Notes: generated by a model from the sequence alone, not told the origin. A stretch of 64,000 nt of DNA from Candidatus Gottesmanbacteria bacterium (GCA_030679255.1 JAUXTO010000022.1:915-64914); one strand, 5' to 3'. Counted from the first letter of the stretch, positions 20,450 through 53,672 are shown. Made by a program: numbers and translations.

Positions 20450-20745
20450 AAATGGACTCCACCTATGGAGTCCTCATTTTTCCGTTTCTATCTTCCCGCC
20501 TCTTATCCTCTCCTACCTTCTCCTATCTTCTCCTATCTTCTCCTAATTCCCCTTATTCGCCCGCCTCGCCCCGCGTAGCATTGGCGAAGTGGGGTATCTT
20601 CCCATCTGTATTTTATTGGATTATTGGCTTATTGGATTATTGCTTTCCCCTCCCCCTCCCGTCCCCCTCCCCCACCCACACCTGCTCCACCGGCTTCCGA
20701 TTTATCTCCTTAAAGTCCACAATCCGCTCGGCAATCGCCTCATCA

Positions 20746-39870: not shown

Positions 39871-40332
39871 TTATCGGATAAAAAGATATGTCTCGAGAAT
39901 AAATATGATCACCAATACCACCAGCACCCACCGCTGCTGGGATATGCTCGGCACGCCCGCCACCATCCCATACCAACTATTCAAGTTACCCGTGAGCTGC
40001 AACTCCCCGATCTGCCAGAGGAGCAGGGAAAGATAGAGGGACAGGACGAGTCCCGCCCCCAGAAAACTTCCGGAAGAGGTTACGACAAAAAAGCTCACAA
40101 CGGCGTAACCTGCCATAAAAAGCACACTACGAAACGGCGAAGGAGTGAGGGCAAAAAACACTTCCGCCCCGTCGAGGAAATACACGCCTAATATTGCCCC
40201 GCCGAAGTAGAGGAACGCCTGCGGAGGCCAGACAATCTTCCATTTGAGGATCCCCACTCCCAACGCATACCCCACGGATACGGCGAGAAACAGGACTGGC
40301 TTCTTTTTAATAATCTCGATCACTTTATCCAT
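39871..40332 (-). CDS. Hypothetical multi-pass membrane protein
   Basis: Hydrophobic helices; start trimmed to the internal Met to avoid overlap with the acylphosphatase gene. Confidence 0.45.
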   Translation of the reverse strand: MDKVIEIIKKKPVLFLAVSVGYALGVGILKWKIVWPPQAFLYFGGAILGVYFLDGAEVFFALTPSPFRSVLFMAGYAVVSFFVVTSSGSFLGAGLVLSLYLSLLLWQIGELQLTGNLNSWYGMVAGVPSISQQRWVLVVLVIIFILETYLFIR

Positions 40333-40369
40333 AGACTTTATGGCTTTTGACTCTTGAATTTCAACTAAC

Positions 40370-40663
40370 TTAGTATACAACTTCAAACCCCATAAATTCA
40401 CCGGTCGCTTTTTCCCACTCGACCTGTATCTTTTCCACAAATGCAACCTCCGGCCCTTTGTGACACGCTCCAATCAAATCTTCAAGATCTTTCTTCTCCC
40501 CTTCCGCCACCACCTCTACCGCCCCATCCTCCCGATTTTTCACCCACCCCGTAATGGACTTTTCCTGTTTATCCCGAGTCTTTCCGAGGGAAGCCTGGTC
40601 GACCCATGCCCGGTACCCCACCCCCTGCACATCACCAGAAATTATCAGATGCACACGTTTCAT
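40370..40663 (-). CDS. acyP: Acylphosphatase
   Basis: VQGVGYRAW ... GWVKNREDGAVE. Confidence 0.8.
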   Translation of the reverse strand: MKRVHLIISGDVQGVGYRAWVDQASLGKTRDKQEKSITGWVKNREDGAVEVVAEGEKKDLEDLIGACHKGPEVAFVEKIQVEWEKATGEFMGFEVVY

Positions 40664-40799
40664 AGTTCTAGTATACATACCCTTACTCCCTCCTAATTTC
40701 TCATAACTTCTCTTAACCTCTCCTATCCCTTCTCTTTCTGTATGCTCTCATAAACAGCCCGTTGCTTTGATGTGGATTGACGATCTACAATTAATTTAC

Positions 40800-41516
40800 A
40801 TGGACGAATCATCTCCGACTATTCCCCCTCTTCCCCCTGATCCTTCTATTCCCTCTCTTCAATTCATCACCCCTCCCGTCCCCCACCGATCTTATCGCAT
40901 CTGGATTCTCGGCGGACTATCAATCCTCTTCCTCGGCATCCTCGTGGGTTTCATAGGCGCCAAGGTTCCCAGTCCATCTACTAAACAATCTGTCGTTCTC
41001 CCGACTTCTATCCTGACCCCGACCCCGTCTCTCGCCCAAGGAGCTGATATTTTCGCAGGGTGGAAAACATTTACAACCAATTGCAATGTTAGTTTCAAAT
41101 ATCCAAACGATTGGAATGCAAAAGAATTTTTCCTTGTAAAAAATGATGGTGATTGCGGCTATCTGACTGCGCCTGGCTATACACAAGGATTAGACACAAG
41201 AAAAGGATTGTATATCGCCGTTTCAAAAATTCTTCTTGGAAACGTCTCCAATAACATTGCCATCAATTCAATAGACGACTACATAAGGTCCATAAAAGCT
41301 ATCTCGGATCCACCAGCGCGCATAACAAATCTAATAAACAAATCATTACAAAATTATCAAGGAAAACAATTTGACATGAGTTTGGCCGAATCTCAAACAA
41401 TATTTGTTTTTGCAAAAGATACGTATCTCTACACAGTAGCTTGGCCAAGCCAATTCTCTGGACGAGAAATGTCCCAAATAGACCAAATCCTCTCCACGTT
41501 TAAATTTAACAAATAG
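40800..41516 (+). CDS. Family C paralog: proline-rich N-terminus, one TM anchor, variable ectodomain, conserved C-terminal motif FDQILSTFKF
   Basis: MDESSPTIPPLPPDPSIP ... WILGGLSILFLGILVGF ... IDQILSTFKFNK. Confidence 0.7.
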   Translation: MDESSPTIPPLPPDPSIPSLQFITPPVPHRSYRIWILGGLSILFLGILVGFIGAKVPSPSTKQSVVLPTSILTPTPSLAQGADIFAGWKTFTTNCNVSFKYPNDWNAKEFFLVKNDGDCGYLTAPGYTQGLDTRKGLYIAVSKILLGNVSNNIAINSIDDYIRSIKAISDPPARITNLINKSLQNYQGKQFDMSLAESQTIFVFAKDTYLYTVAWPSQFSGREMSQIDQILSTFKFNK

Positions 41517-41571
41517 TCTCCCATTCTCTTGCGCGATCCATTGCGCGATTATTGCGTGATATAATAAGGGT

Positions 41572-42618
41572 ATGTTTCTACCAACCTACCGTATTTCCGA
41601 TCAGATTCTTGCATGGCTTTCTGAAATTGCCCAAATCAAAGCTATGGTGGACCATGCCACATTACTCCCTGCTCGCCAAGCGCTACTTCGCCGCGCTACA
41701 ACGATCAAGATGACCCATTCCTCCACCTCCATAGAGGGAAATTCCCTGAAAGAATATCAGGTGCTTCAGATCGCAGACGGCAAGAGGGTGCAGGCTCAAT
41801 CCAAGGATATCCGGGAGGTCCAAAACTATCTCAGCGCGCTTGAACTTATAGATACTCTCTCTCAAAATTCTACGTTCACCCAGGGAGACATCCTCGCGAT
41901 CCACAGTCGCGTGATCACAGGGTTAGTAGACACCGCAAAAACCGGCACGTTGCGCCGTGGACCGGTGTATGTCGTCAATACATTACCGTCAGGAAGGGAA
42001 CAATTAGTCTATACACCGCCTACGTGGCAGAAAGTAGCTGTCCTTTTAGACGATCTCACCGCGTGGTGCAACGAATCTGCCGCAGTCCATCCTATTATTC
42101 GAGCGGGCATCCTTCATTATCAATTTGAATCGATCCATCCCTTCACCGATGGCAACGGTAGGGTGGGGAGACTTCTCACCCTCCTTCATCTCTACCAATC
42201 TGCCTGGAATTTTAAAAAGGTTCTGGTGTTAGAAGATTTTTATAATGAAAATCGGAAAAATTATTACGAGGCTCTCCAAACAGGTACAACATTTGCAAAA
42301 CGAGATGGCGCAGATATCACCCCATGGCTCACCTACTTTATCAAAGGATTTTGGGAGGAAGCACTTCGCGTAAAAGAACAAATACTGAGCTTACAGGTAG
42401 GCGCAGGGGATATTACATCGCGCAGACTCACGACAGACGAACTCAGGATGATCGATTTCCTCGTGACGATGGGAAAAATTACGAGCGCTGATGTGGTAGA
42501 CATACTCCAGGTGCCCAAGCGTACGGCACAAGCGAAACTGAAAAAGTTAGAGCTCTATCGTATCGTTAAAAAAATATCTGCTGGTCCGAGTACTTACTAC
42601 TGCCTTGCGCCCACATAA
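41572..42618 (+). CDS. Fic/DOC-family protein
   Basis: Fic motif HPFTDGNGRVGRLL. Confidence 0.85.
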   Translation: MFLPTYRISDQILAWLSEIAQIKAMVDHATLLPARQALLRRATTIKMTHSSTSIEGNSLKEYQVLQIADGKRVQAQSKDIREVQNYLSALELIDTLSQNSTFTQGDILAIHSRVITGLVDTAKTGTLRRGPVYVVNTLPSGREQLVYTPPTWQKVAVLLDDLTAWCNESAAVHPIIRAGILHYQFESIHPFTDGNGRVGRLLTLLHLYQSAWNFKKVLVLEDFYNENRKNYYEALQTGTTFAKRDGADITPWLTYFIKGFWEEALRVKEQILSLQVGAGDITSRRLTTDELRMIDFLVTMGKITSADVVDILQVPKRTAQAKLKKLELYRIVKKISAGPSTYYCLAPT

Positions 42619-42732
42619 ACGGTACCGCTCCTCATTCTCTCCTCATTTCTCTTGCCTTCCCGTAGTTCTCTCATACTCTCCCGCATTCATCCCGTTGCTT
42701 TGATGAGGGATGACGATCTACAATAAATTTAC

Positions 42733-43503
42733 ATGGACGAATCATCTCCAACTCCTCCCCCTCTTCCCTCTGATCCTTCTATTCCTTTACCTCAAATCGT
42801 CCCCCCTCCACCAACAGTCCCCCATCCATCCAAACTTCTCTGGTTTCTCGCCGGCCTTGCCATCCTCATTCTCGGCATCCTCGTGGGATACGCGGCCACC
42901 AACGTCCTGAGTCAATCAAAAAAGCCATCAGATGACGCAACCACCTCATCACAAAAATCTTCCACCAATTTTTCCCAACTCACCTCTTCCCCTACCCCCT
43001 TACCCGACGGAGCTTCAGCGAAGGAGGGTGCCCCAACACTCGCAACAGGAGCGGATCTGTTTGCACAGTGGATAACATATACCAATGACAAACATAAATT
43101 TTCTTTTACATACCCTCAAGAATTATCTTATTTAAATGATTATTTGGACAAAAACACACAAATATATGGAAATTTATTACTACAAAATTTTGACGGATCA
43201 AAACCGCGCAAGGAATTGACCTCAGATTTTCAAATGGGTATCTGGTTAAACAAGGACGATGGAACACCTCTGGCAAATCACCCGAAACAATGGGAAAAAG
43301 AATTGGGAAAATTACCAATTGAATACATAACCGTGGGCGGAATCAATGCGATCAAAGGGTTTAGTGAACAAAAATATCAAGCGGTCCCAACTGTTTGGTT
43401 TTCAAAAAATGATGATTCCTACATGATACAACTCTCCCATCCCAACTCAACAAACAAAATATGGTTTGACCAAATCCTCTCCACATTTAAATTCACAGAG
43501 TAG
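42733..43503 (+). CDS. Family C paralog (membrane-anchored variable surface protein)
   Basis: Same N-terminal PPLPSDPSIP...TM and C-terminal FDQILSTFKFTE; 5' flank almost identical to the 40800 gene. Confidence 0.7.
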   Translation: MDESSPTPPPLPSDPSIPLPQIVPPPPTVPHPSKLLWFLAGLAILILGILVGYAATNVLSQSKKPSDDATTSSQKSSTNFSQLTSSPTPLPDGASAKEGAPTLATGADLFAQWITYTNDKHKFSFTYPQELSYLNDYLDKNTQIYGNLLLQNFDGSKPRKELTSDFQMGIWLNKDDGTPLANHPKQWEKELGKLPIEYITVGGINAIKGFSEQKYQAVPTVWFSKNDDSYMIQLSHPNSTNKIWFDQILSTFKFTE

Positions 43504-43622
43504 ACCAACTCTGCGCGATACATTGCGCGATTATTGCGTAGTAATGTTTGTAACCGTTTAAGAGTTACCACAAGGTTGCATCAGTTGAATGACGAAGGAG
43601 ACTAACGTACAATACGCTCACC

Positions 43623-43907
43623 ATGGATACGAAAGCACTCAACTATCGCGTCATCATCGAGCCAGACGTGTATTCCGGGTCAGGAAAACCGTGCTATTTA
43701 GCGTACGCACCGGCCCTTGACGTGGCGGACAATGGGGATAGCATCGAAAAGGCAATCACAAACATCACTGAGGCAATCCGTTGCCGGATAGATGCTCTCA
43801 TAGCTGATGGAGAGCCGGTTCCTTCACCGGAGAATCCTAGCGACACCGTGGTTGTGACCACAGCAAAAGTTTTGGTTCCCAAAGATTATCCTTTTGCATT
43901 TGCATGA
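43623..43907 (+). CDS. hicB: HicB-family antitoxin
   Basis: 94 aa; UPF0150/HicB-like. Confidence 0.7.
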   Translation: MDTKALNYRVIIEPDVYSGSGKPCYLAYAPALDVADNGDSIEKAITNITEAIRCRIDALIADGEPVPSPENPSDTVVVTTAKVLVPKDYPFAFA

Positions 43908-44128
43908 GTAAATTAGGCAACGTTCGCCCCCGCGATGTTATCCGTGCGTTTAAGAAGCATGGATTTATAGAGGTCAAAACCGTCGGAAGCCACGTAGACC
44001 TTCGCCATCCGGCCGGATACCGTACTACTGTCCCGTTTCACGCCAAAACACTCGGAAAAGGACTTCTTGCCAAGATTCTCAAGCAATCCCACCTTACTAT
44101 CGATCAATTACGAAATCTCATAAAATAA
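43904..44128 (+). CDS. hicA: HicA-family mRNA interferase toxin
   Basis: 74 aa; GSHVDLRHP motif; 4-nt overlap with hicB. Confidence 0.7.
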   Translation: MSKLGNVRPRDVIRAFKKHGFIEVKTVGSHVDLRHPAGYRTTVPFHAKTLGKGLLAKILKQSHLTIDQLRNLIK

Positions 44129-44209
44129 ACTAACATACAACAGCGCGCGACTCTTGCGTGGTATTTATTTTGTTGATTGATGAAGTTCAAGAGTTTACTA
44201 TAAATCTAC

Positions 44210-45112
44210 ATGGACTCCTCCACTGTCACTCCTCCCCCTCTTCCCTCTGATCCTTCTATCTCTTTGCCTCAAATCGTCCCTCCTCCACTACCCGTCCCCC
44301 ATCCATCCAAACTCAAATGGCTTCTCGGAGGACTATCAATCCTCATCCTCGGCATCCTCGCGGGATACGCGGCCACCAACGTCCTGAGTCAATCAAAAAA
44401 GCAAGTCGCCACCCCACCAAAAAACTCTCCTTCCACATTCTCCACCCTCTCCTCTCCTACTCCCTTGCCCGCCGGCTTGTCCGCCGAAGCCTTGGCGAAG
44501 GTGGAGGCTTCAGCGAAGGGAGATGATCCAACTTCGAATTGGAAAAGGTATCTGGTAAAAACAGTAAATCTTGAATTCAAATTACCACCAACGTTTAATT
44601 CCTACGGAGACCTAATGGAAAAAATTGAACCCGGGGAAAAAGGTACGCTACTGTGTATAACATTTCCAACGAGCTCGTCGTATCATTTTATTAACCCTAT
44701 TTTTGCCGGAGGAACAGGATGCCAAATACATAAATTCGGTCTCGGCACCATATCCGTAGACTACGAAGCGGGCAGAGGTGGAAGTTTTACTGACGTACTC
44801 GGTTATGTCATAAAAAACGGAAAATACTATGGACGTCAAGTAGGCAACAGTGTGTTCGAACTTCCTCCATTATTGACCACCCCGATGAATAATTCTAACG
44901 GTATGCAAATACTAAAAATCATAGGTAAAAACGAAACATCCGGAGAATGGCGGGGCCCCGTCGGAGGCACGCCCGGAGATGGAAAAATTGGAGCTATCCT
45001 CAATACGAAAAACCCTCTCTACCCCGGCATCGCGATAGAAATGGAATTAAATAGTACTCTTACTGAGGGCCTTTTTGACCAAATCCTCTCCACGTTTCAA
45101 TTCACACAGTAG
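44210..45112 (+). CDS. Family C paralog
   Basis: MDSSTVTPPPLPSDPSISLPQIVPPP...TM...FDQILSTFQFTQ. Confidence 0.7.
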   Translation: MDSSTVTPPPLPSDPSISLPQIVPPPLPVPHPSKLKWLLGGLSILILGILAGYAATNVLSQSKKQVATPPKNSPSTFSTLSSPTPLPAGLSAEALAKVEASAKGDDPTSNWKRYLVKTVNLEFKLPPTFNSYGDLMEKIEPGEKGTLLCITFPTSSSYHFINPIFAGGTGCQIHKFGLGTISVDYEAGRGGSFTDVLGYVIKNGKYYGRQVGNSVFELPPLLTTPMNNSNGMQILKIIGKNETSGEWRGPVGGTPGDGKIGAILNTKNPLYPGIAIEMELNSTLTEGLFDQILSTFQFTQ

Positions 45113-45266
45113 ACTCCCGAGCTCTCCTACTTCCTCCTACTCTCTCCTATCCACTCCTAATTACCCTTATCCTCCCGTACATTCCCATACTCCCGCAGTA
45201 CCCCCTCGCGGCCCACATCGTGCGTAGGATTGATTACTTCCCATCAACCATTTACTATGTCTCTAC

Positions 45267-45995
45267 ATGGACACCATTCCCATTTCTCCTCCCCCTCTTC
45301 CCTCTGATCCTTCTATTCCTTCACCTCAAATCGTCCCCCCTCCACCAACAGTCCACCATCCCTCCAAACTTCTCTGGTTTCTCGCCGGTCTTACGATTCT
45401 CATCCTCGGCATCCTCGCGGGATACTTTGCCACCAACGTCCTGAGTCAATCAAAAAAGCCATCAGATGACGCAACCACCCCATCACAAAAATCTTCCACC
45501 AATTTTTCCCAACTCGCCGTTTCCCCGACCTCAACAATTGACCCCACGGCAAATTGGAAAACATATACAAATCCTAATTATCCCTTCAGTTTTAAATATC
45601 CATCAAATTACACAGTGGAAGAAAATTCAGGATATATAAGTATCCTCAGTCCTCTACTTCCAGTGACTGATAAGGGGTACGAATTAAAAAATGGTGAACT
45701 AAAGATAGAAATTTATATACAGTCATCACCAGTAAATGATTCGCTGAAAAAATATGTATTAGAAAAGAAGACTCAAACAAAGGAAAACTTACCGGAATCA
45801 AAAATAATTAACGAAACCGAAGTTACAATCGATGGTATAAAAACTATTTTATTAAAATGGGAAGCCGTGGGAACAGGAGAAACAAGATATGTAATCAAGA
45901 ACGGATATAGAATTGGAATTACCAAATATCCTCTTGAAACTTCAAGACAATCAGAATTTGACCAAATCCTCTCCACGTTTACATTCACCGACTAA
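45267..45995 (+). CDS. Family C paralog
   Basis: First ~250 nt ~90% identical to the 42733 gene; ends EFDQILSTFTFTD. Confidence 0.7.
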   Translation: MDTIPISPPPLPSDPSIPSPQIVPPPPTVHHPSKLLWFLAGLTILILGILAGYFATNVLSQSKKPSDDATTPSQKSSTNFSQLAVSPTSTIDPTANWKTYTNPNYPFSFKYPSNYTVEENSGYISILSPLLPVTDKGYELKNGELKIEIYIQSSPVNDSLKKYVLEKKTQTKENLPESKIINETEVTIDGIKTILLKWEAVGTGETRYVIKNGYRIGITKYPLETSRQSEFDQILSTFTFTD

Positions 45996-46000
45996 CGACG

Positions 46001-46753
46001 TTACCGTAACACATAGTCGAGTTGATCGATAATCACTGTTCTAAAATCCTGCAAAAATTGGCTCAAAAATTCTTTGGTCTCGACCAGTGGATAGAGATCA
46101 TCATAAACAAATTGTGGATCTACCAATTCTACTTTGGCTTTCACCAAGTCCCGTATTTCCGGGAGAGACTTTTTTTGCAACAGCGCCGTCAACCGTTTGA
46201 CATTGGGTTTGAGGGTATAGCCGGTCTTAGCCGAAAGTTGGAGGAGCCAGTACATATCGTAGATATCCCGCCCCTTAAATGGGATTGTTTGAAATTTTCC
46301 TTTAAAAAAGTTCCTGCTCAGAAACGCTACAATTTTATTGGCAAAAAGCGTGGGCAGATCATACGCAGTAACAAAAAATTGACGATTGCCGGCAGTGATC
46401 AAATTTTTTTGGACGTGATATTCTGTTGTTGTAACCTTGGAAAAATCACACCGTACGAAAATATTGTCAGGAAATTTTACAAACACCGTCGCGTTATTGC
46501 CGGATATCTTGGTACCTGTGGATAAACATTTTCCCAAATTATTGGCAAACATCGTGATATCTACGGAGATACCCATAGGGATATCAAAATCCAAATCTTC
46601 AGACAAGCGGTTTAACCCATACGCTTTTCGCAGACAGGTTCCCCCGGTAAAAATGAGTTTATTGTAAACGCTATCATGGTAAACAAAGCTGAGTATTTCA
46701 TCTTGCCACCGTTCTTTTACCAAATTTCTCTGATAGGTATTAGTGTCGCTCAT
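46001..46753 (-). CDS. AbiEii-like nucleotidyltransferase toxin
   Basis: IFTGGTCLRKAYGLNRLSEDLDFD. Confidence 0.75.
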   Translation of the reverse strand: MSDTNTYQRNLVKERWQDEILSFVYHDSVYNKLIFTGGTCLRKAYGLNRLSEDLDFDIPMGISVDITMFANNLGKCLSTGTKISGNNATVFVKFPDNIFVRCDFSKVTTTEYHVQKNLITAGNRQFFVTAYDLPTLFANKIVAFLSRNFFKGKFQTIPFKGRDIYDMYWLLQLSAKTGYTLKPNVKRLTALLQKKSLPEIRDLVKAKVELVDPQFVYDDLYPLVETKEFLSQFLQDFRTVIIDQLDYVLR

Positions 46754-47378
46754 AGAGGTATTGTAGTACGTTTCGCATCTTTTTTGACCTTGATTTTGTC
46801 ACGATCTCTTTAAATTCTTGCATATCTTTGGGTGTAAATACTCCCCAATTGAACCGTGAGTCAAATAAAAATTCCCGTGCAACCCTGCCAGATTCAAGCG
46901 GAGTAAGATAGATCAGATCAAACAGCGCTTTGGCCGGACTGGCCATTTGATATGTCAGCGTTCCAAAGAATTTTTTGGTATATCCCCAAAACAACCCGGA
47001 CTTAATATTCCGGTATCGGAAGCTCATGAGTGGACTTTGAAACTTCCTGGTTTTTTTGGTCGTAATATACGTGATGGTATAGACACTTTCGGCCAATATT
47101 CCGTAAAGCGCCAACGCATACTCCAAAGAGATATAGCTGTCCCGCACCATCTCGCCACCGATATATCTCGCCATTTCTTCCGGCTCGGATGTTTTTTGGT
47201 ACAGCGTTTTGTTGAGGTATATTCCGGGCTTGATTGTGTCGAGCATTCCCATCCGTCTGAGCGACGTGATCCGATAGTCTGTCGTGCGTCTATTGTCCCC
47301 CAATAGGAGCTCCAGATTCTTCCTGGTAAAAAACGGAGCTGTGCTTTCTGAGATCAATTTCTTATAATCTGTTTCCAT
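46740..47378 (-). CDS. AbiEi-like antitoxin
   Basis: ~212 aa; overlaps the AbiEii start. Confidence 0.6.
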   Translation of the reverse strand: METDYKKLISESTAPFFTRKNLELLLGDNRRTTDYRITSLRRMGMLDTIKPGIYLNKTLYQKTSEPEEMARYIGGEMVRDSYISLEYALALYGILAESVYTITYITTKKTRKFQSPLMSFRYRNIKSGLFWGYTKKFFGTLTYQMASPAKALFDLIYLTPLESGRVAREFLFDSRFNWGVFTPKDMQEFKEIVTKSRSKKMRNVLQYLYERH

Positions 47379-47486
47379 ATGCACATAATTATATGTGCAA
47401 CAAGAAATAAAGTCAAGTGGTGGTTATTACATACGTTCGTATCTTCCTCTTGATCGATAAAATAGAAAGACTTATCATAATTCTAC

Positions 47487-48839
47487 ATGGACGAATCATC
47501 TCCAACTCCTCCCCCTCTTCCCCCCTCGCCCGCCGCCTTGTCCGCCGAAGCCTTAGCGAAGGTGGAAGCCTTAGCGAAGGAGGGTGATCCTTCTATCTCT
47601 TTGCCTCAAATCGTCCCTCCTCCACTACCCGTCCCCCATCCATCCAAACTCAAATGGCTTCTCGGCGGTCTCACGATCCTCATCCTCGGCATTCTCATGG
47701 GATACGCGGCCACCAACGTCCTTAATCAATCAAAGAAACCCCCAAATGACGCAGCCACTCCATCCCAAAAATCTTCCACCAATTTTTCCCAACTCACCTC
47801 TTCCCCTACCTCTACTATTGAATTCAACCAAGAGCTAAAAACATATAAAAACCCACGCGGGCTCAATTTTTCCTACCCAAATGGCTGGCAAATTTTGGAT
47901 CGGACGCTTAACCCGGGAGAAAACCTAAAAGAAAAGGGCAGGTATGATATTTCAGCTGATAAGGATCCAGTAGAGATTGTCGACGTGGTAAAAAATGATT
48001 GGACACTCCGCGTTACAATAAAAGACGCGTATAGTCCACTTGGAGGTTTCGGGCCAATTCAAGATCTTCACGAATATAAAGTTTTTCCCATCCTCGGTAG
48101 AAATGCTCTCAGAACTAAAATTGAAGATGGATATATGCCTGCCATATCTGATCATCCAGAACCCTATCCCTTTCCAATTTTGTTCCAAAGGCATCCTGGG
48201 GAAACCGACCCTGTTTATTGGCGTACTCCGGATACAGAGGGAAATTTTGTTCCATTGTTTTCTACAAATGATCCAAGGGACAAAATTAATATAGATGCAG
48301 TTATCTATTCAAAATTCCTTACAAAAAATAATATCAATAACCGCAAGATTGAGCCATCTATAATTCAAGAAATAGACCAAATCCTCTCCACGTTTCAATT
48401 TCTCGATGCTCCAAGTCCCACCACCACGACGCGCATACAAGCCACGCCAATCGAGTCAAACGGCGTGGATCTCAAAGGCATCCGCTACACCCTCCCTACG
48501 GGTTGGGGAGCGACGCTTAACGCCGACAATCTCCATCTCGCGCCTAAATCCGGAGGTGGATACTTATATATTGAAGTATTCAATTACCCCGGTACCACGG
48601 GGCGGAGAGACTACTACTGCCAGCTGCGTAAATACTGTATCCCCGAGACTGAATTTACAGAAACAACCATTGGAAATATATCAGGATACCGAGCAACGAG
48701 GCTTGATAATAGCGGCGGCGGAGAGGAATATTTTGGGGCCAAAGGCAACAAATTCTATATCATCGGTACATACTCTCCCCCCTCTCCCAACGACTTTGAC
48801 AATAATTACAAATCCGTCTTGAGTTCGCTCATCTTCTGA
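47487..48839 (+). CDS. Family C paralog with an extra C-terminal domain after an internal IDQILSTFQF motif
   Basis: 5' ~170 nt near-identical to the 44210 gene; the conserved C-terminal motif sits mid-protein (~residue 300), followed by ~140 aa more. Confidence 0.7.
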   Translation: MDESSPTPPPLPPSPAALSAEALAKVEALAKEGDPSISLPQIVPPPLPVPHPSKLKWLLGGLTILILGILMGYAATNVLNQSKKPPNDAATPSQKSSTNFSQLTSSPTSTIEFNQELKTYKNPRGLNFSYPNGWQILDRTLNPGENLKEKGRYDISADKDPVEIVDVVKNDWTLRVTIKDAYSPLGGFGPIQDLHEYKVFPILGRNALRTKIEDGYMPAISDHPEPYPFPILFQRHPGETDPVYWRTPDTEGNFVPLFSTNDPRDKINIDAVIYSKFLTKNNINNRKIEPSIIQEIDQILSTFQFLDAPSPTTTTRIQATPIESNGVDLKGIRYTLPTGWGATLNADNLHLAPKSGGGYLYIEVFNYPGTTGRRDYYCQLRKYCIPETEFTETTIGNISGYRATRLDNSGGGEEYFGAKGNKFYIIGTYSPPSPNDFDNNYKSVLSSLIF

Positions 48840-48968
48840 CATCTTCCATCGTACGTCTTGAGTCCTACGTCTTATGTCCTTCTCAATCCGTCCTCTCCTC
48901 CCTCATTTTTTAATTGGATTTTACATTCATTTGTAGATTTGTAGATTCGTAGATTTCCTCATTTGTTT

Positions 48969-49229
48969 TTACTCCTCCCCCTTCCGGAGCTTCCCCATCT
49001 TCCACATAAAGAGTTTGGGCTTGCTGGTGGCATTAGCATCCTTGACGAATGAGTATGCTTTTTCGAGGATCGCCCGCGGCACGGTTTTGGCGAGGCGTAT
49101 GTAGAGCGATTTATGTTTGTAATCCCCGAGATTTTCTGCAAGGAATATCCCATATGACTGAAACTCCCGCGAGATATATTTGTCTTCGATGGGATTAAAC
49201 TTCTTGAGGATATCGCTTATGGTCTGCAT
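48969..49229 (-). CDS. Hypothetical protein (86 aa)
   Basis: ORF with an upstream TAGGAGA-type leader. Confidence 0.45.
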   Translation of the reverse strand: MQTISDILKKFNPIEDKYISREFQSYGIFLAENLGDYKHKSLYIRLAKTVPRAILEKAYSFVKDANATSKPKLFMWKMGKLRKGEE

Positions 49230-49288
49230 AGCAGTGTTTTCTCTTATCCTCTCCTATTTTCTCCTAATTTCTCCTAACGCGTGATGAA

Positions 49289-49879
49289 TCAATTAAACCG
49301 ATTCATCGCTTTATCAATCCCATCGATTAGTCCGATCCGAACCGCTTCTGTTCCGTGTTTTACGAGGTGCTTGAGGCTTCCTGCTTCGTCACGACGAAAC
49401 CGGGACAGCACAAACTGGATGACGGACCGATGATGAAGATTTTTATCCCGCGCATCGGGAGATCCTGCTTTCCCCCGCCCGATCCCCATACGGAAACGGA
49501 TAAACGCATCAGTCTTGATTGCCAACGCAATGGACTCTATCCCATGATGCCCACCGGTCCCGCCTTTTTCGCGTATGCGGATTTTTCCCAAAGGAAGATC
49601 GATGTCATCGTGGATGACCCAGAGGTCTGCGGGGGCGAGTTTATAAAAACGAATAAGCGCCCCCACGGCAAGTCCGCTGTTATTCATGAAGGTGAGTGGC
49701 TTGGCAAGGATCACGTCGCCCACGCGGGCTACCATTGCCTTGCGGGCACTGTCTTCTTTCCAGGAAGCATCGATGCCTCCCAACTCATGGGCGAGCTTGT
49801 CCACGATCATAAACCCGATATTATGCCGGGTGCTTTCATATTCTCGCCCAGGATTACCAAGACCAACAATCAATTTCAT
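49289..49879 (-). CDS. pth: Peptidyl-tRNA hydrolase
   Basis: MKLIVGLGNPGREYESTRHNIGFM. The start is taken at this internal Met; the longer upstream extension is unlikely. Confidence 0.85.
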   Translation of the reverse strand: MKLIVGLGNPGREYESTRHNIGFMIVDKLAHELGGIDASWKEDSARKAMVARVGDVILAKPLTFMNNSGLAVGALIRFYKLAPADLWVIHDDIDLPLGKIRIREKGGTGGHHGIESIALAIKTDAFIRFRMGIGRGKAGSPDARDKNLHHRSVIQFVLSRFRRDEAGSLKHLVKHGTEAVRIGLIDGIDKAMNRFN

Positions 49880-49884
49880 TCCGA

Positions 49885-50229
49885 TTACTTTCCCGCCATC
49901 TTTGCCAGTTGCGCTTCTGCAATATCGCCGACTTTCGGCACTTTGTACATTTCTCCCTGAAACGCTTTCCACATACACACAATCCAGAGGATGAATGATA
50001 CGAGCGATAACACGAGTCCTGTGAGCCATCCCAATATCGGGATAAATCCAAGCGCGATATTAGCGAGAAATACGCCGCCAAAAAGGACGGTCGATTGCAT
50101 CGCGTGAAAACGGACGAATTTGCTTTGCTTCTCGAGGAGCAGGAAGATAATTCCGGTCACAAATCCCAACAGGTAGCTAGCTGCGGCCATGAGATTTTCA
50201 TTTCCTTTTGTTGTTGTTCCATTTGCCAT
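49885..50229 (-). CDS. DUF4870-like small membrane protein
   Basis: SKFVRFHAMQS motif; 3 TM helices. Confidence 0.6.
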   Translation of the reverse strand: MANGTTTKGNENLMAAASYLLGFVTGIIFLLLEKQSKFVRFHAMQSTVLFGGVFLANIALGFIPILGWLTGLVLSLVSFILWIVCMWKAFQGEMYKVPKVGDIAEAQLAKMAGK

Positions 50230-51023: not shown

Positions 51024-53672
51024 TTACAACAAACTCATTTGTTCTTTCGACGCGTCCACGAGGGGTTTATCTTCATCGTCGCGCCAGAGTTTCACGACAC
51101 CAAATACTCCGTCATACCCGGGATCGATGACGAGATCCCCACGTCGGACTTTATCGATACCTTCAGCTATCCTTGCGCCCGCAACCTTCGTAATTTCCTC
51201 TATAGTCGCGTTCAGAAGCACATTAAACTCCCCACCCAATGCATCTGTCAGCGTCATGTACGGCCCCTGTACCTTGGGGCTTGCAACCGGTGATCCAATA
51301 CACTCATGAATTATCTCTTGTAAGGGTACGAGCATCACAAACGGCGGCCTGTTTGGAAATTTCTTGCTTCCCGTCATCCGAATTGTTTTCTTATCTGACA
51401 GCTGACCCGCTTCGCCGGAGCTTGAGCGAGGCGAGTAGTTGACAGCTGATAGCTTGAGTGATTCCTCGCTCCTCCCTGCCAGCTGTTCAACTCTCTGCAC
51501 GACACCCTGGACAAGCGGTTTCCCACACACAGGACACGTCGTCCCCTTCTTTGCCGTCTCCTCGGGACCCCACCGTATCCCGCACGCCCGGTGCCCCGAC
51601 CAATGATACTTCCCCTCTTCGGGATAAAATTCTATCGTATAAGCAATCTTAGCTTTCAGCTTTCTGTCTTCAGTCTTCAGACTTGAAGAACGTATCGCAT
51701 CATAAATCATCTGATAGCTGAGAGCTGACGACTGACGACTAGTCTCAAATACCGTCGCTTCCCTCCCCAACTTCGGCCCCGAGTGCGCATCGGAAAAAGA
51801 CAGAATCGATCGATGATCAAGTTCCTTGATGCGCCAATTCATCGCCGGATTACTCGATAACCCCGTCTCTATCGCATAAATATGCTTTGCATACGGCCCA
51901 AATGCCTCATCCAGACTCTCAAACCCACCCTTCTCGCCATAGACCGAGAACCACGGAGTCCAGCAATTATGAACAACCGCATACTCTGCGATATATGAAT
52001 GATCCTTTTCCACCTCCAGGTTATAGACATCGCCTTCATACACTTTTTTTGTTATTTCCTTTATCGGCAAATAGACGTTCATTTTGTCGATCCATCCATG
52101 CCTACGGTCCAACGTTGTTTGCGACTTCGGCATTTCTTTTTTGAGATCAAACGCATCCTCAAAGAAAGAAAGATTTGACATTGAATAGAGATCATAGTTA
52201 AATTTTATCACCCGGTTGCCAATTTTATGATTACCTATTCTTTGATGCACCGCTTCATTATTTATGATAATAGATGGAATAATACCCAGACGAAGACACA
52301 CAGCTTTCATCTGATGTACCAACATTCGCGACGTCGTATATCCACGATCTCCCCTATACCACCCGCGGAGACATTCTGCTTGTGCAGCAGCATCTGCCAT
52401 TAGGAGCACAGATGGAATCATTTTATTGCTTGCGGAATGTTTTTGTCCTGGTGTGTAGCATTGGTGAGCGAACCACTGGGCATGGAGTTTGGAATAATAA
52501 ATAATTTCCACACCTTTTGTCTGTTTCCGACGATACAGTCGATTGTAATCAATGCCAAGTACGTTTTTCACTAATTGAACGACATCATCGATATATTCCT
52601 GTTCCTTTTCAGAAAAACAAAAGGAAAAACTATTGTCGCCGTCCGTGGACCCCTCCGCAATATAATACCCGACCAATCTACCCAAATCCGACGTTATGGG
52701 AATTCTGTTTTTCAGCACTCTCCCCCGTGTTCCCCCGGCGCGAATTAAACTTTCGTGCCCTCCATTTACATCCAAATACATATCTGTTTCGCGCTTCATC
52801 GTTTGCGAACGTGGATATACGAGCATATCACCTACGGTTAAATCTTCTGCCTTAACCCATGCTGGTTTATACTTCAAACATTCTTTTCTTTTGCAAAGAG
52901 AAAGGTGCGATCTGCTGGGTCGGCATATATCGCCGGTACTCGAACACTTCTTAATTGTTTGGATAGCATAATATGGATGCTCCGGCGTCGTCACAAGCCC
53001 GGGACGGAAGTACCAAGGTTGTACATGAAGAACAAATCCTTTATATGAACGTTTTTTTACTTCTGTAACGCTATGCAGCTCACCGGTGTGTGTTAACACA
53101 CCATCACCTTCTACAATTTTGTCGATACGTTTCGGCACAAAATTATCTCCCAATATCATCGAATCAGGGAGAAGACAATGCGCCGGTATGATCAACGCTT
53201 TAGGCTCTATAGCCAACACGAGTTCGGCTATATGGATGCAGGAAAGCCCCACGATAGGCCGACCGTCGCTCATGAGATTGCAGCCGCGCTTCGTCATCTC
53301 CTGACTAATTTTCCGGGCAGACGCAATGGTCGGCACCCAGATGAGTGTATGCACCCGCCGGACTTTCCCGCCCTGGGAATAAATCGAAGAAACTTCGGTA
53401 GCAAGCATAAAATGAGGACTTTTGACTTTCTTGCCCGCCGTAGCTTTAGCGGAGGTGGGTGACTTTTGACTTTTGACTTGTAATAACCCATTCCCCAACT
53501 CCACCAGATCCCTCTCTATCTCCCGAAACCACATCGGGTGCATCCAGTCGCCTGTCGCGACCAATCCTATCCCCTTCCTCCTCGCCCACGCGGCAATATT
53601 GGGGATAGTCATAGCCGGCGACACCGCACGGGAAAAATGGGAGTGGAGCTGTAAGTCGGCAATAATCTGCAT
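51024..53672 (-). CDS. PHP-domain protein (EndoQ/TIGR00375-like?) with C-terminal zinc ribbon, interrupted by a LAGLIDADG intein
   Basis: N-terminal ADLQLHSHFS PHP motif. Intein Cys1 ...AH|CLLPDS..., LAGLIDADG blocks LVGYYIAEGSTDGDN and LRGWYRGDRGY, C-terminal VVHN|C. Extein resumes CWTPWF...SFSDAHS; later CPVCGKPL. Confidence 0.7.
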   Translation of the reverse strand: MQIIADLQLHSHFSRAVSPAMTIPNIAAWARRKGIGLVATGDWMHPMWFREIERDLVELGNGLLQVKSQKSPTSAKATAGKKVKSPHFMLATEVSSIYSQGGKVRRVHTLIWVPTIASARKISQEMTKRGCNLMSDGRPIVGLSCIHIAELVLAIEPKALIIPAHCLLPDSMILGDNFVPKRIDKIVEGDGVLTHTGELHSVTEVKKRSYKGFVLHVQPWYFRPGLVTTPEHPYYAIQTIKKCSSTGDICRPSRSHLSLCKRKECLKYKPAWVKAEDLTVGDMLVYPRSQTMKRETDMYLDVNGGHESLIRAGGTRGRVLKNRIPITSDLGRLVGYYIAEGSTDGDNSFSFCFSEKEQEYIDDVVQLVKNVLGIDYNRLYRRKQTKGVEIIYYSKLHAQWFAHQCYTPGQKHSASNKMIPSVLLMADAAAQAECLRGWYRGDRGYTTSRMLVHQMKAVCLRLGIIPSIIINNEAVHQRIGNHKIGNRVIKFNYDLYSMSNLSFFEDAFDLKKEMPKSQTTLDRRHGWIDKMNVYLPIKEITKKVYEGDVYNLEVEKDHSYIAEYAVVHNCWTPWFSVYGEKGGFESLDEAFGPYAKHIYAIETGLSSNPAMNWRIKELDHRSILSFSDAHSGPKLGREATVFETSRQSSALSYQMIYDAIRSSSLKTEDRKLKAKIAYTIEFYPEEGKYHWSGHRACGIRWGPEETAKKGTTCPVCGKPLVQGVVQRVEQLAGRSEESLKLSAVNYSPRSSSGEAGQLSDKKTIRMTGSKKFPNRPPFVMLVPLQEIIHECIGSPVASPKVQGPYMTLTDALGGEFNVLLNATIEEITKVAGARIAEGIDKVRRGDLVIDPGYDGVFGVVKLWRDDEDKPLVDASKEQMSLL
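51966..53177 (-). mobile_element. Intein (404 aa) with a LAGLIDADG homing-endonuclease domain inside the PHP-domain gene
   Basis: Bounded by Cys (residue 166) and His-Asn (568-569), followed by a Cys +1; contains two LAGLIDADG motifs. Confidence 0.7.

Follow-up and report, generated by a model that had tools for sequence, protein, structure and literature searches.

The 64,000-nt stretch analyzed here (the window), from a Candidatus Gottesmanbacteria bacterium (GCA_030679255.1, JAUXTO010000022.1:915-64914), harbors five plus-strand tandem paralogs, designated below by their first nucleotide, which have in common a proline-rich leader, one hydrophobic transmembrane (TM) anchor, a Ser/Thr/Pro linker, a variable ectodomain and a C-terminal DQILSTF motif (Table 1). 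Two of them, the 44210 and 47487 genes, contain a similar short coding cassette. We consider this cassette to be probably a copy of a small modular repeat that forms hairpins, of the repetitive extragenic palindromic (REP) or intragenic-palindrome kind.

The match between the two genes extends from 44451-44529 to 47512-47590, with 84% identity across 79 nt in a repeat search and a concordant pairwise alignment, and the only two occurrences of the 26-mer TCCGCCGAAGCCTTRGCGAAGGTGGA within the 64 kb are those at 44480 and 47541, none being expected from 100 shuffles. In the open reading frame (ORF) of the 44210 gene the cassette is translated as PAGLSAEALAKVEASAKGDDP and lies downstream of the hydrophobic anchor, whereas in that of the 47487 gene it is translated as PAALSAEALAKVEALAKEGDP and lies upstream of the anchor, within the proline-rich leader. 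Both the match and this difference in placement had been described in an earlier note on this DNA and are present as it described them. Internally, the cassette consists of an 18-nt unit in tandem (x2), and it is GC-rich in a window of 47% GC, properties that would favor a chance likeness between two low-complexity stretches. This explanation is refuted by the absence of expected matches in shuffles and by the E-values of 4e-17 and 2e-15 that the two segments obtain with a covariance model built without them.

The element to which the cassette corresponds is made of 30-nt modules, each comprising a 12-nt left unit (L, consensus CTTGTCCGCCGA) followed by an 18-nt right unit (R, AGCCTTGGCGAAGGNGGA), and its commonest form is that of two nested modules, L1 L2 R1 R2, of 60 nt. 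The covariance model identifies four to six copies in the window. Both 60-nt copies are inserted in-frame, one ahead of the TM anchor in the proline-rich leader of the 47487 gene, where it encodes SPAALSAEALAKVEALAKEG, and the other in the Ser/Thr/Pro linker of the 44210 gene, after the anchor. The degenerate copy of the 42733 gene, the copy in a gene for an Endonuclease Q (EndoQ) homologue and the 18-nt tandem structure had escaped the earlier note. The 42733 copy occupies a site homologous to that of the 44210 copy, with flanks that align with the 44210 gene; it consists of one outer left and one outer right unit, to which the 44210 copy adds an inner 30-nt L+R pair at the junction. When the 47487 gene is aligned with the four other paralogs, a clean 60-nt surplus appears between CTTCCC(C/T)C and TGATCC. 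Since this surplus is 60 nt long and bounded by the same unit edges as in other phyla, it corresponds to exactly one element. The right-unit core TGGCGAAGGCGG/TGG (e.g. at 44491-44502) may resemble a 12-mer conserved in 16S rRNA, GGTGGCGAAGGCGGC, probably by coincidence.

Table 1. Paralogous genes, element copies and the conversion tract in the window (bits and E-values of element copies are those of the covariance model).
Feature	Position	Strand	Units (left to right)	Remarks
Paralog 1 (40800 gene)	40800-41516	+		PsbP-like ectodomain; no element; PF18933 15.2 bits
Paralog 2 (42733 gene)	42733-43503	+		Hosts degenerate 30-nt copy; PF18933 12.9 bits
Paralog 3 (44210 gene)	44210-45112	+		Hosts post-TM 60-nt copy; no PF18933 match
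Paralog 4 (45267 gene)	45267-45995	+		No element; PF18933 44.1 bits
Paralog 5 (47487 gene)	47487-48839	+		Hosts pre-TM 60-nt copy; mosaic; PF18933 21.1 bits
60-nt element, 47487 gene	47525-47584	+	CTCGCCCGCCGC / CTTGTCCGCCGA / AGCCTTAGCGAAGGTGGA / AGCCTTAGCGAAGGAGGG	74.9 bits, E=4.2e-17, full length
60-nt element, 44210 gene	44464-44523	+	CTTGCCCGCCGG / CTTGTCCGCCGA / AGCCTTGGCGAAGGTGGA / GGCTTCAGCGAAGGGAGA	68.2 bits, E=2.3e-15, full length
Degenerate 30-nt element, 42733 gene	42999-43028	+	CTTACCCGACGG / AGCTTCAGCGAAGGAGGG	Model match 42987-43028, 21.2 bits, E=0.004
30-nt element, antisense in EndoQ homologue	53430-53459	+	CTTGCCCGCCGT / AGCTTTAGCGGAGGTGGG	22.6 bits, E=0.0017
Possible decayed copy, EndoQ homologue (weak)	51394-51449	+		20.1 bits, E=0.007
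Possible single inner hairpin (weak)	20569-20594	+	CCCCGCGTAGCATTGGCGAAGTGGGG	17 bits, E=0.046
81-nt identical tract	47585-47665	+		Exact match to 44248-44328 (+), leader of 44210 gene

The element is not restricted to this family of paralogs, an outcome that the earlier note had itself named as one that would refute its reading of the cassette. Besides the copy in the EndoQ gene of the window, it is found in at least 120 loci from many phyla, which were collected with a 25-nt pattern spanning two 18-nt units (GCGAAGGNGGARGCNTNRGCGAAGG) from bacterial and archaeal contigs, taking one genome per species, against a chance expectation of about 0.3 (596 Gb, both strands). Left units of 12 nt precede the pattern in nearly all loci, although they are absent from the pattern itself. 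A covariance model named R1, built from 62 foreign copies with those of the window left out, confirms 97 of 100 and 23 of 24 loci (about 97%); members of the family score 50-89 bits, and the 60-nt copies of the window fall inside this range. Four loci (L004, L018, L028 and L123) were rejected by model R1 as chance matches to the pattern.

The carriers include Verrucomicrobiota, Kiritimatiellia, Lentisphaerae, Planctomycetota, Omnitrophota, Acidobacteriota, Nitrospirota and Methylomirabilota, together with Alpha- and Deltaproteobacteria, Bacteroidota, Ignavibacteria and Dependentiae. Within the Candidate Phyla Radiation (CPR), the element is present in Levy-, Uhr-, Doudna-, Falkow-, Andersen- and Saccharibacteria and in Paceibacterota. 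Isolates are also represented (Pelagicoccus sp., Bradyrhizobium sp. I1.14.4 and Verrucomicrobiae DG1235), as are three IMG/VR contigs, and among the matches listed several genomes gave 3-5 loci each. With blastn, neither PLSDB plasmids nor 5,426 E. coli genomes gave a match to the consensus 60-mer, in a search whose sensitivity may be lowered by the low-complexity filter. Lone copies in metagenome-assembled genomes (MAGs) of Bifidobacteriaceae (L055), Rickettsiales (L093) and Pseudomonadales (L109) could reflect binning contamination. A wider repeat context is seen at some loci (L096/L100, L097:2970-3344 and L053/L092/L118): in some genomes the element lies inside longer genome-specific repeats, with flanks shared over tens of bases or, in an Ignavibacteria MAG, three copies in tandem about 150 nt apart, and several loci have it at the apex of a longer inverted repeat peculiar to the locus.

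L2 pairs with R1 to form an inner hairpin with 6-bp stems, TCCNCC-G(A/T)A-GCY-NN-RGC-GAA-GGN'GGA, in which hardly any variation between phyla is seen in the G(A/T)A / GAA internal loop or in the YNNR tip. L1 pairs likewise with R2 (e.g. CCCTCC...GGAGGG or TCACCC...GGGTGA), the first outer pair being T-A in 34 copies and C-G in 18. The N/N' stem position of 126 copies is occupied by GC (42), GT (24), TA (15), AT (13), CG (6) and TG (5), with 21 non-pairs, and the tip pair by CG (54) or TA (35); some copies carry alternative tips, GCTC-GAA-GAGC or GCCC-GCA-GGGC. Taking the nested structure as a whole, pairing is found in 94.6% of cells and falls to 26-55% when the partners are slid by 1-3 columns, and 93 double-sided changes are observed against 33 in shuffles (0 of 500 as high). 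The right half is partly fixed by the search pattern, and the independent evidence consists of the left half and of its covariation with the free positions. The inner helix is recovered unaided by RNAalifold; the outer helix is missed by it, its support being the explicit pair counts. At the variable pair G.T is found 29 times and A.C 6 times, and this excess indicates that the written strand is the one that folds, as RNA or single-stranded DNA, and that the choice of folding strand is intrinsic to the element.

Such compensatory changes, which keep two nested helices, together with the near invariance of the internal loop and tip, the definite folding strand suggested by the G.T excess and the intergenic position of about half of the copies in low-GC genomes, would also be expected of a functional structured RNA or single-stranded DNA motif, for example an mRNA stabilizer, a protein-binding hairpin or a signal for recombination or replication. 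We regard a function of this sort as quite unlikely: the occurrence in both orientations, in unrelated genes and at arbitrary positions argues against a role in the host transcript, no Rfam family is matched, decayed copies persist (the outer stem of the 44210 copy and the 42733 copy), and a maintained hairpin is equally expected if a mobilizing enzyme recognizes the fold. Compared with the 4,227 covariance models of Rfam, neither 10 loci that carry the element (threshold E<=1) nor window positions 40000-50000 (E<=10) gave a relevant match; a sub-threshold match to Acido-Lenti-1 in L097 was set aside, as it lies elsewhere in that locus.

In low-GC genomes about half of the copies lie in short open stretches that are probably intergenic, and the rest inside long ORFs, in either orientation. 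Eight hosts of in-frame copies were verified with Pfam, namely RecJ, DnaX, a G6PD-6PGD fusion, a UvrD/PD-(D/E)XK helicase-nuclease, RpoC, ValRS, ThiC and ParA. The in-frame copies are found in both orientations and use three reading frames, so that depending on frame and orientation the same DNA is translated as LSAEALAKxEALAK, PSFAKASxFAKASxDK or RSLGEGGSFSEGG, and also as PSFAKASxDK or RSLGEGG. Its consensus is free of stop codons in all six frames, and the stops in the window copies fall only in frames that are not used. Insertion in genes can be tolerated because the units are multiples of 3 nt, no duplication is made and the consensus is devoid of stops.

The EndoQ homologue of the window (51024-53672, minus strand; PDB 5zb8, E=7e-18) provides an example of a host that shares no homology with the paralogs. 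There, the element is read as PTSAKATAGK and supplies extra residues in a surface loop, and the closest homologue (P0007, from another Gottesmanbacteria MAG) is shorter by exactly 10 amino acids, or 30 nt, at this place. The loop that follows GNGLLxxK is hypervariable in 24 EndoQ homologues, several of which have long unrelated inserts, and it appears to be a general hot spot of insertion. An intein carrying a LAGLIDADG domain also interrupts this EndoQ homologue.

Both paralog copies are sense-oriented and in the LSAEALAK-x-E frame, which explains why the cassette resembled a shared peptide. A peptide module selected as protein, such as an amphipathic Ala/Lys/Glu helix useful to membrane-anchored proteins, would account for a single frame encoding an Ala/Leu/Lys/Glu-rich 20-mer in the paralogs and for the fact that this sense frame is also the commonest among coding copies elsewhere. 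It is nonetheless highly improbable, because conservation operates at the nucleotide level, synonymous positions included, and because covariation at the variable positions follows base pairs (S-A with K-A-E, S-S with K-E-E) and not residues. Moreover, other hosts translate the DNA as PSFAKASxDK or RSLGEGG, about half of the copies do not code for protein, and no protein family emerged from a peptide search, in which the 31-residue cassette peptide, compared with 1.84 billion representatives, recovered itself and an unrelated ankyrin-repeat protein only, the query being too short to be informative.

Three comparisons of filled and empty sites are available, and in all of them the difference amounts to whole modules without target duplication: 60 nt for the 47487 gene, 30 nt for the EndoQ gene and 30 nt for the 44210 gene with respect to the 42733 gene. 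The EndoQ element is surrounded by a tract of 7-mers, (TGACTTT)n, at 53416-53480, which mimics a 7-bp target duplication. TGACTTT on both sides was rejected as such a duplication, since, relative to the empty homologue, the net surplus is exactly 30 nt, within a 7-mer tract that already existed. The three insertions in the window are followed by TGAY (TGATCC, TGATCC and TGACTT), and no common flanking target motif was found among the foreign copies.

The earlier note had taken the two cassettes as support for segmental exchange of DNA among the paralogs, and this is correct for the paralogs themselves. The 47487 gene is a mosaic: its first 37 aligned nucleotides are 97% identical to the 42733 gene, its linker is 84% identical to that of the 45267 gene and 58% to that of the 44210 gene, and an 81-nt tract of its leader, which begins exactly at the 3' edge of the element, is identical to the leader of the 44210 gene, where other paralogs match at 65-68 of the 81 positions. 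This tract is a signature of gene conversion between paralogs.

The inference does not extend to the cassette, whose history differs from that of the identical tract abutting it. The 44210 and 47487 copies are identical at 51 of 60 positions and have no private derived states in common, and the R2 units of the two copies belong to different subtypes (CTTCAGC and CCTTAGC). Among 63 foreign copies, 11 resemble the 44210 copy, and 22 the 47487 copy, to at least the same degree (51/60); the best match of the former is from a Nitrospiraceae MAG and that of the latter from a 6PGD gene of Andersenbacteria (54/60 in both cases). Since the cassettes differ at 9 of 60 positions and the adjoining tracts at 0 of 81 (Fisher p=3e-4), cassette and tract were not transferred together. 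Furthermore, the cassettes lie at non-homologous sites, which homology-driven conversion cannot explain.

It could still be proposed that illegitimate recombination or template switching, in the course of the gene conversion that is frequent in this family, relocated or duplicated a short coding segment of one paralog at a different position in another, perhaps using the TGATCC that follows both cassettes as microhomology. The paralogs do exchange segments, as indicated by the mosaic gene and the 81-nt tract, the sequence identical to the 44210 gene starts precisely where the 47487 cassette ends, orientation and frame are common to both cassettes, and L1-L2-R1 differ at only 3 of 42 positions. 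We nevertheless find such a transfer unlikely, as the contrast in divergence just described is incompatible with co-transfer, copies from other phyla are equally close or closer and the R2 subtypes differ. In addition, the insert is exactly the element as delimited elsewhere, with no further context from a donor, and the element is also present in the EndoQ gene, which is not homologous to the paralogs.

If the cassette is a copy of a hairpin-forming repeat, the simplest course of events would be that the ancestor of the 42733 and 44210 genes acquired an early insertion in its linker, that the 47487 leader received another one separately, and that conversion between the leaders of the 44210 and 47487 genes later produced a tract that halted at the heterology made by the element. 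More generally, the element may be mobilized in trans without target duplication, probably via a folded single-stranded intermediate, and the number of modules would change when a 30-nt L+R pair is added or removed at the L|R junction. A copy landing in a tolerant part of a gene would add just 10 or 20 residues, as the one-module copy in the EndoQ surface loop, in the opposite orientation, may have done. The copies would be selectively near-neutral passengers of disordered segments, and their hairpin, or the heterology that they create, could mark the end of neighboring conversion tracts.

Several observations weigh against this interpretation. Mobility is deduced from the distribution and the three filled/empty comparisons. 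No mobilizing enzyme was identified and no gene recurs beside the copies: an all-against-all BLASTP of 2,396 ORFs from 124 loci revealed no recurrent neighbor, the largest cluster covering 8 loci. Genes for REP-associated tyrosine transposases (RAYTs) are single-copy and would seldom lie within 8 kb of a copy taken at random. Among the foreign copies, 4 of 55 are bordered by direct repeats of 7 nt or more, for a null mean of 0.25, which fits poorly with a strictly duplication-free mechanism; inverted repeats also flank 4 of 55 foreign copies (null about 0.25). The folding energy of the 60-nt window copies is unremarkable with respect to shuffles (z=0.36 and -0.97), so the structural case rests on covariation, and most of the 44210 copy's outer stem has decayed. 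Finally, the two paralog copies have the same orientation and frame and the same TGATCC after them, and the 47487 copy sits exactly at a breakpoint of the mosaic.

Under the hairpin-repeat interpretation, the peptide shared by the two paralogs is a parasite or passenger at the nucleotide level and not a case of domain shuffling. Annotation pipelines would then yield spurious motifs (LSAEALAKxE, PSFAKASxDK and SYGGQ-like) in thousands of proteins, especially in CPR and in the Planctomycetes-Verrucomicrobia-Chlamydiae (PVC) group. A broader proposition can be put forward more tentatively, as we judge it somewhat less probable than its contrary: the element may be an unnamed, frame-neutral hairpin element with a 30-nt module, nearly unchanged over more than 10 phyla and some viral contigs, which inserts whole L+R modules without duplication, also into its own L|R junction to give the nested forms, and colonizes essential genes as readily as intergenic DNA. 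If so, it would imply recurrent transfer between phyla or recognition by a widely shared host enzyme, and a selfish element of a different kind from lineage-specific REPs. The questions raised concern the mobilizing agent, the route across phyla and the possibility that palindromes seed recombination breakpoints, as the 81-nt tract might illustrate. The element can also be searched for easily, as a marker of insertion polymorphism among uncultured lineages.

As for the paralogs that host the element, the PsbP_2 cutoff (PF18933, 27 bits) is passed by the 45267 gene only, whose product is identical to an NCBI entry named 'PsbP-related protein [Candidatus Gottesmanbacteria bacterium]'. The family differs from PsbP_2 proteins by its lineage-specific layout of leader, TM anchor and DQILSTF motif. 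A query with the N-terminal part retrieved only the 45267 protein itself among 5.8 billion proteins, and JGI metagenome contigs yielded no relatives of the family. Whereas the other four paralogs end at DQILSTFQF, the 47487 paralog extends past it by about 140 residues, which make up an extra C-terminal domain (48400-48839).

The intervals between paralogs (41572-42618, 43623-44128 and 46001-47384) contain Fic/DOC, HicB/HicA and AbiEii genes, of toxin-antitoxin or defense type, the partner upstream of AbiEii having no Pfam match, and the region has the appearance of a variable island. The stop codons of the 40800 and 42733 genes are each closely followed, on the 3' side, by a 28-nt repeat, TGCGCGATCCATTGCGCGATTATTGCGT (41530-41557 and 43512-43539, 96% identical). 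Tracts of CTCCTAnnnn with a 10-nt period adjoin the paralogs at 40680-40738 and 45114-45192, and another (20530-20560) is located directly 5' of the weak copy at 20569; they could be phased protein-binding or promoter-region repeats.

Among known systems, REPs are short GC-rich palindromes in which mismatched trinucleotides lie beside a loop flanked by GC and G.T pairs are common (Di Nocera et al. 2013, PMC3733652). Intragenic REPs add 20-30 residues and are in excess in replication and repair genes, with examples in Opitutus terrae and in the palindromic elements of Rickettsia (PMC3733652). The element is similarly a short GC-rich imperfect palindrome (20-40 nt per hairpin in REPs), occurring singly, as dimers or in clusters, with non-complementary trinucleotides between the stem and a GC-flanked loop, frequent G.T pairs, and both intergenic and in-frame intragenic copies, in hosts that include RecJ, DnaX, UvrD and EndoQ. 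It differs from REPs in that it has no unpaired terminal GTAG/CGTC, G(T/A)AG being found inside the hairpin (GTA in 71 and GAA in 47 of 126), and in its nested L^n R^m arrangement, whereas REPs form head-head or tail-tail dimers. Its sequence is conserved over more than 10 phyla, while REP families are mostly species- or genus-specific. The peptides encoded by O. terrae REPs (GTGVPPV and VGPALAAG) are unrelated to those of the element, the sequence of which is absent from PMC3733652 and its supplements. No RAYT gene was seen among the neighboring ORFs of the 124 loci.

The Rickettsia palindromic elements (RPEs) are about 100-150 bp long, AT-rich and confined to Rickettsia, and are inserted in-frame in genes, including essential ones; they are said to have been described by Ogata et al. 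in 2000. The element resembles them as an in-frame palindromic insert, tolerated as a surface peptide that leaves the frame intact. By their description, RPEs are distinct from it, the element being 30-60 nt long, GC-rich and spread across phyla (CPR, PVC, Acidobacteriota and others). MITEs, or miniature inverted-repeat transposable elements, and relatives of the insertion sequences (IS) IS200/IS605 are likewise non-autonomous, with complementary ends and no linked transposase at most copies, and IS200/IS605 elements are hairpin-based and insert without target duplication. The element is, however, far smaller than MITEs and shows no target-site duplication in the three filled/empty comparisons, and no parent IS was identified, though no genome-wide search for one was made.

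Palindromic amphipathic repeat coding elements (PARCELs) are defined by a protein hidden Markov model as a 25-residue motif in long tandem arrays (2010, PMC2996958). They share with the element the dyad symmetry of coding repeats, a punctate spread across phyla and membrane-targeted hosts, and horizontal gene transfer and intragenomic shuffling have been proposed for them (PMC2996958). An identity with PARCELs was rejected, as the element is conserved as nucleotides, half of its copies are non-coding, and frame and orientation vary. Tandem interspaced guide RNA (TIGR) arrays contain two variable spacers per unit and box C/D flanks and lie beside a tas (Nop-domain) gene (bioRxiv 10.64898/2026.09.09.750476); they were also rejected, since the units of the element have no variable spacers, only the covarying stem positions changing, and single copies are found in unrelated genes. 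Literature searches, of incomplete coverage, gave only primer coincidences for the DNA and peptide strings of the element, and concept searches reached the REP and PARCEL papers, without the element. The general kind to which the element belongs is thus already known and is REP-like, and it is set apart by its cross-phylum sequence, its nested L^n R^m architecture and its missing terminal tag.

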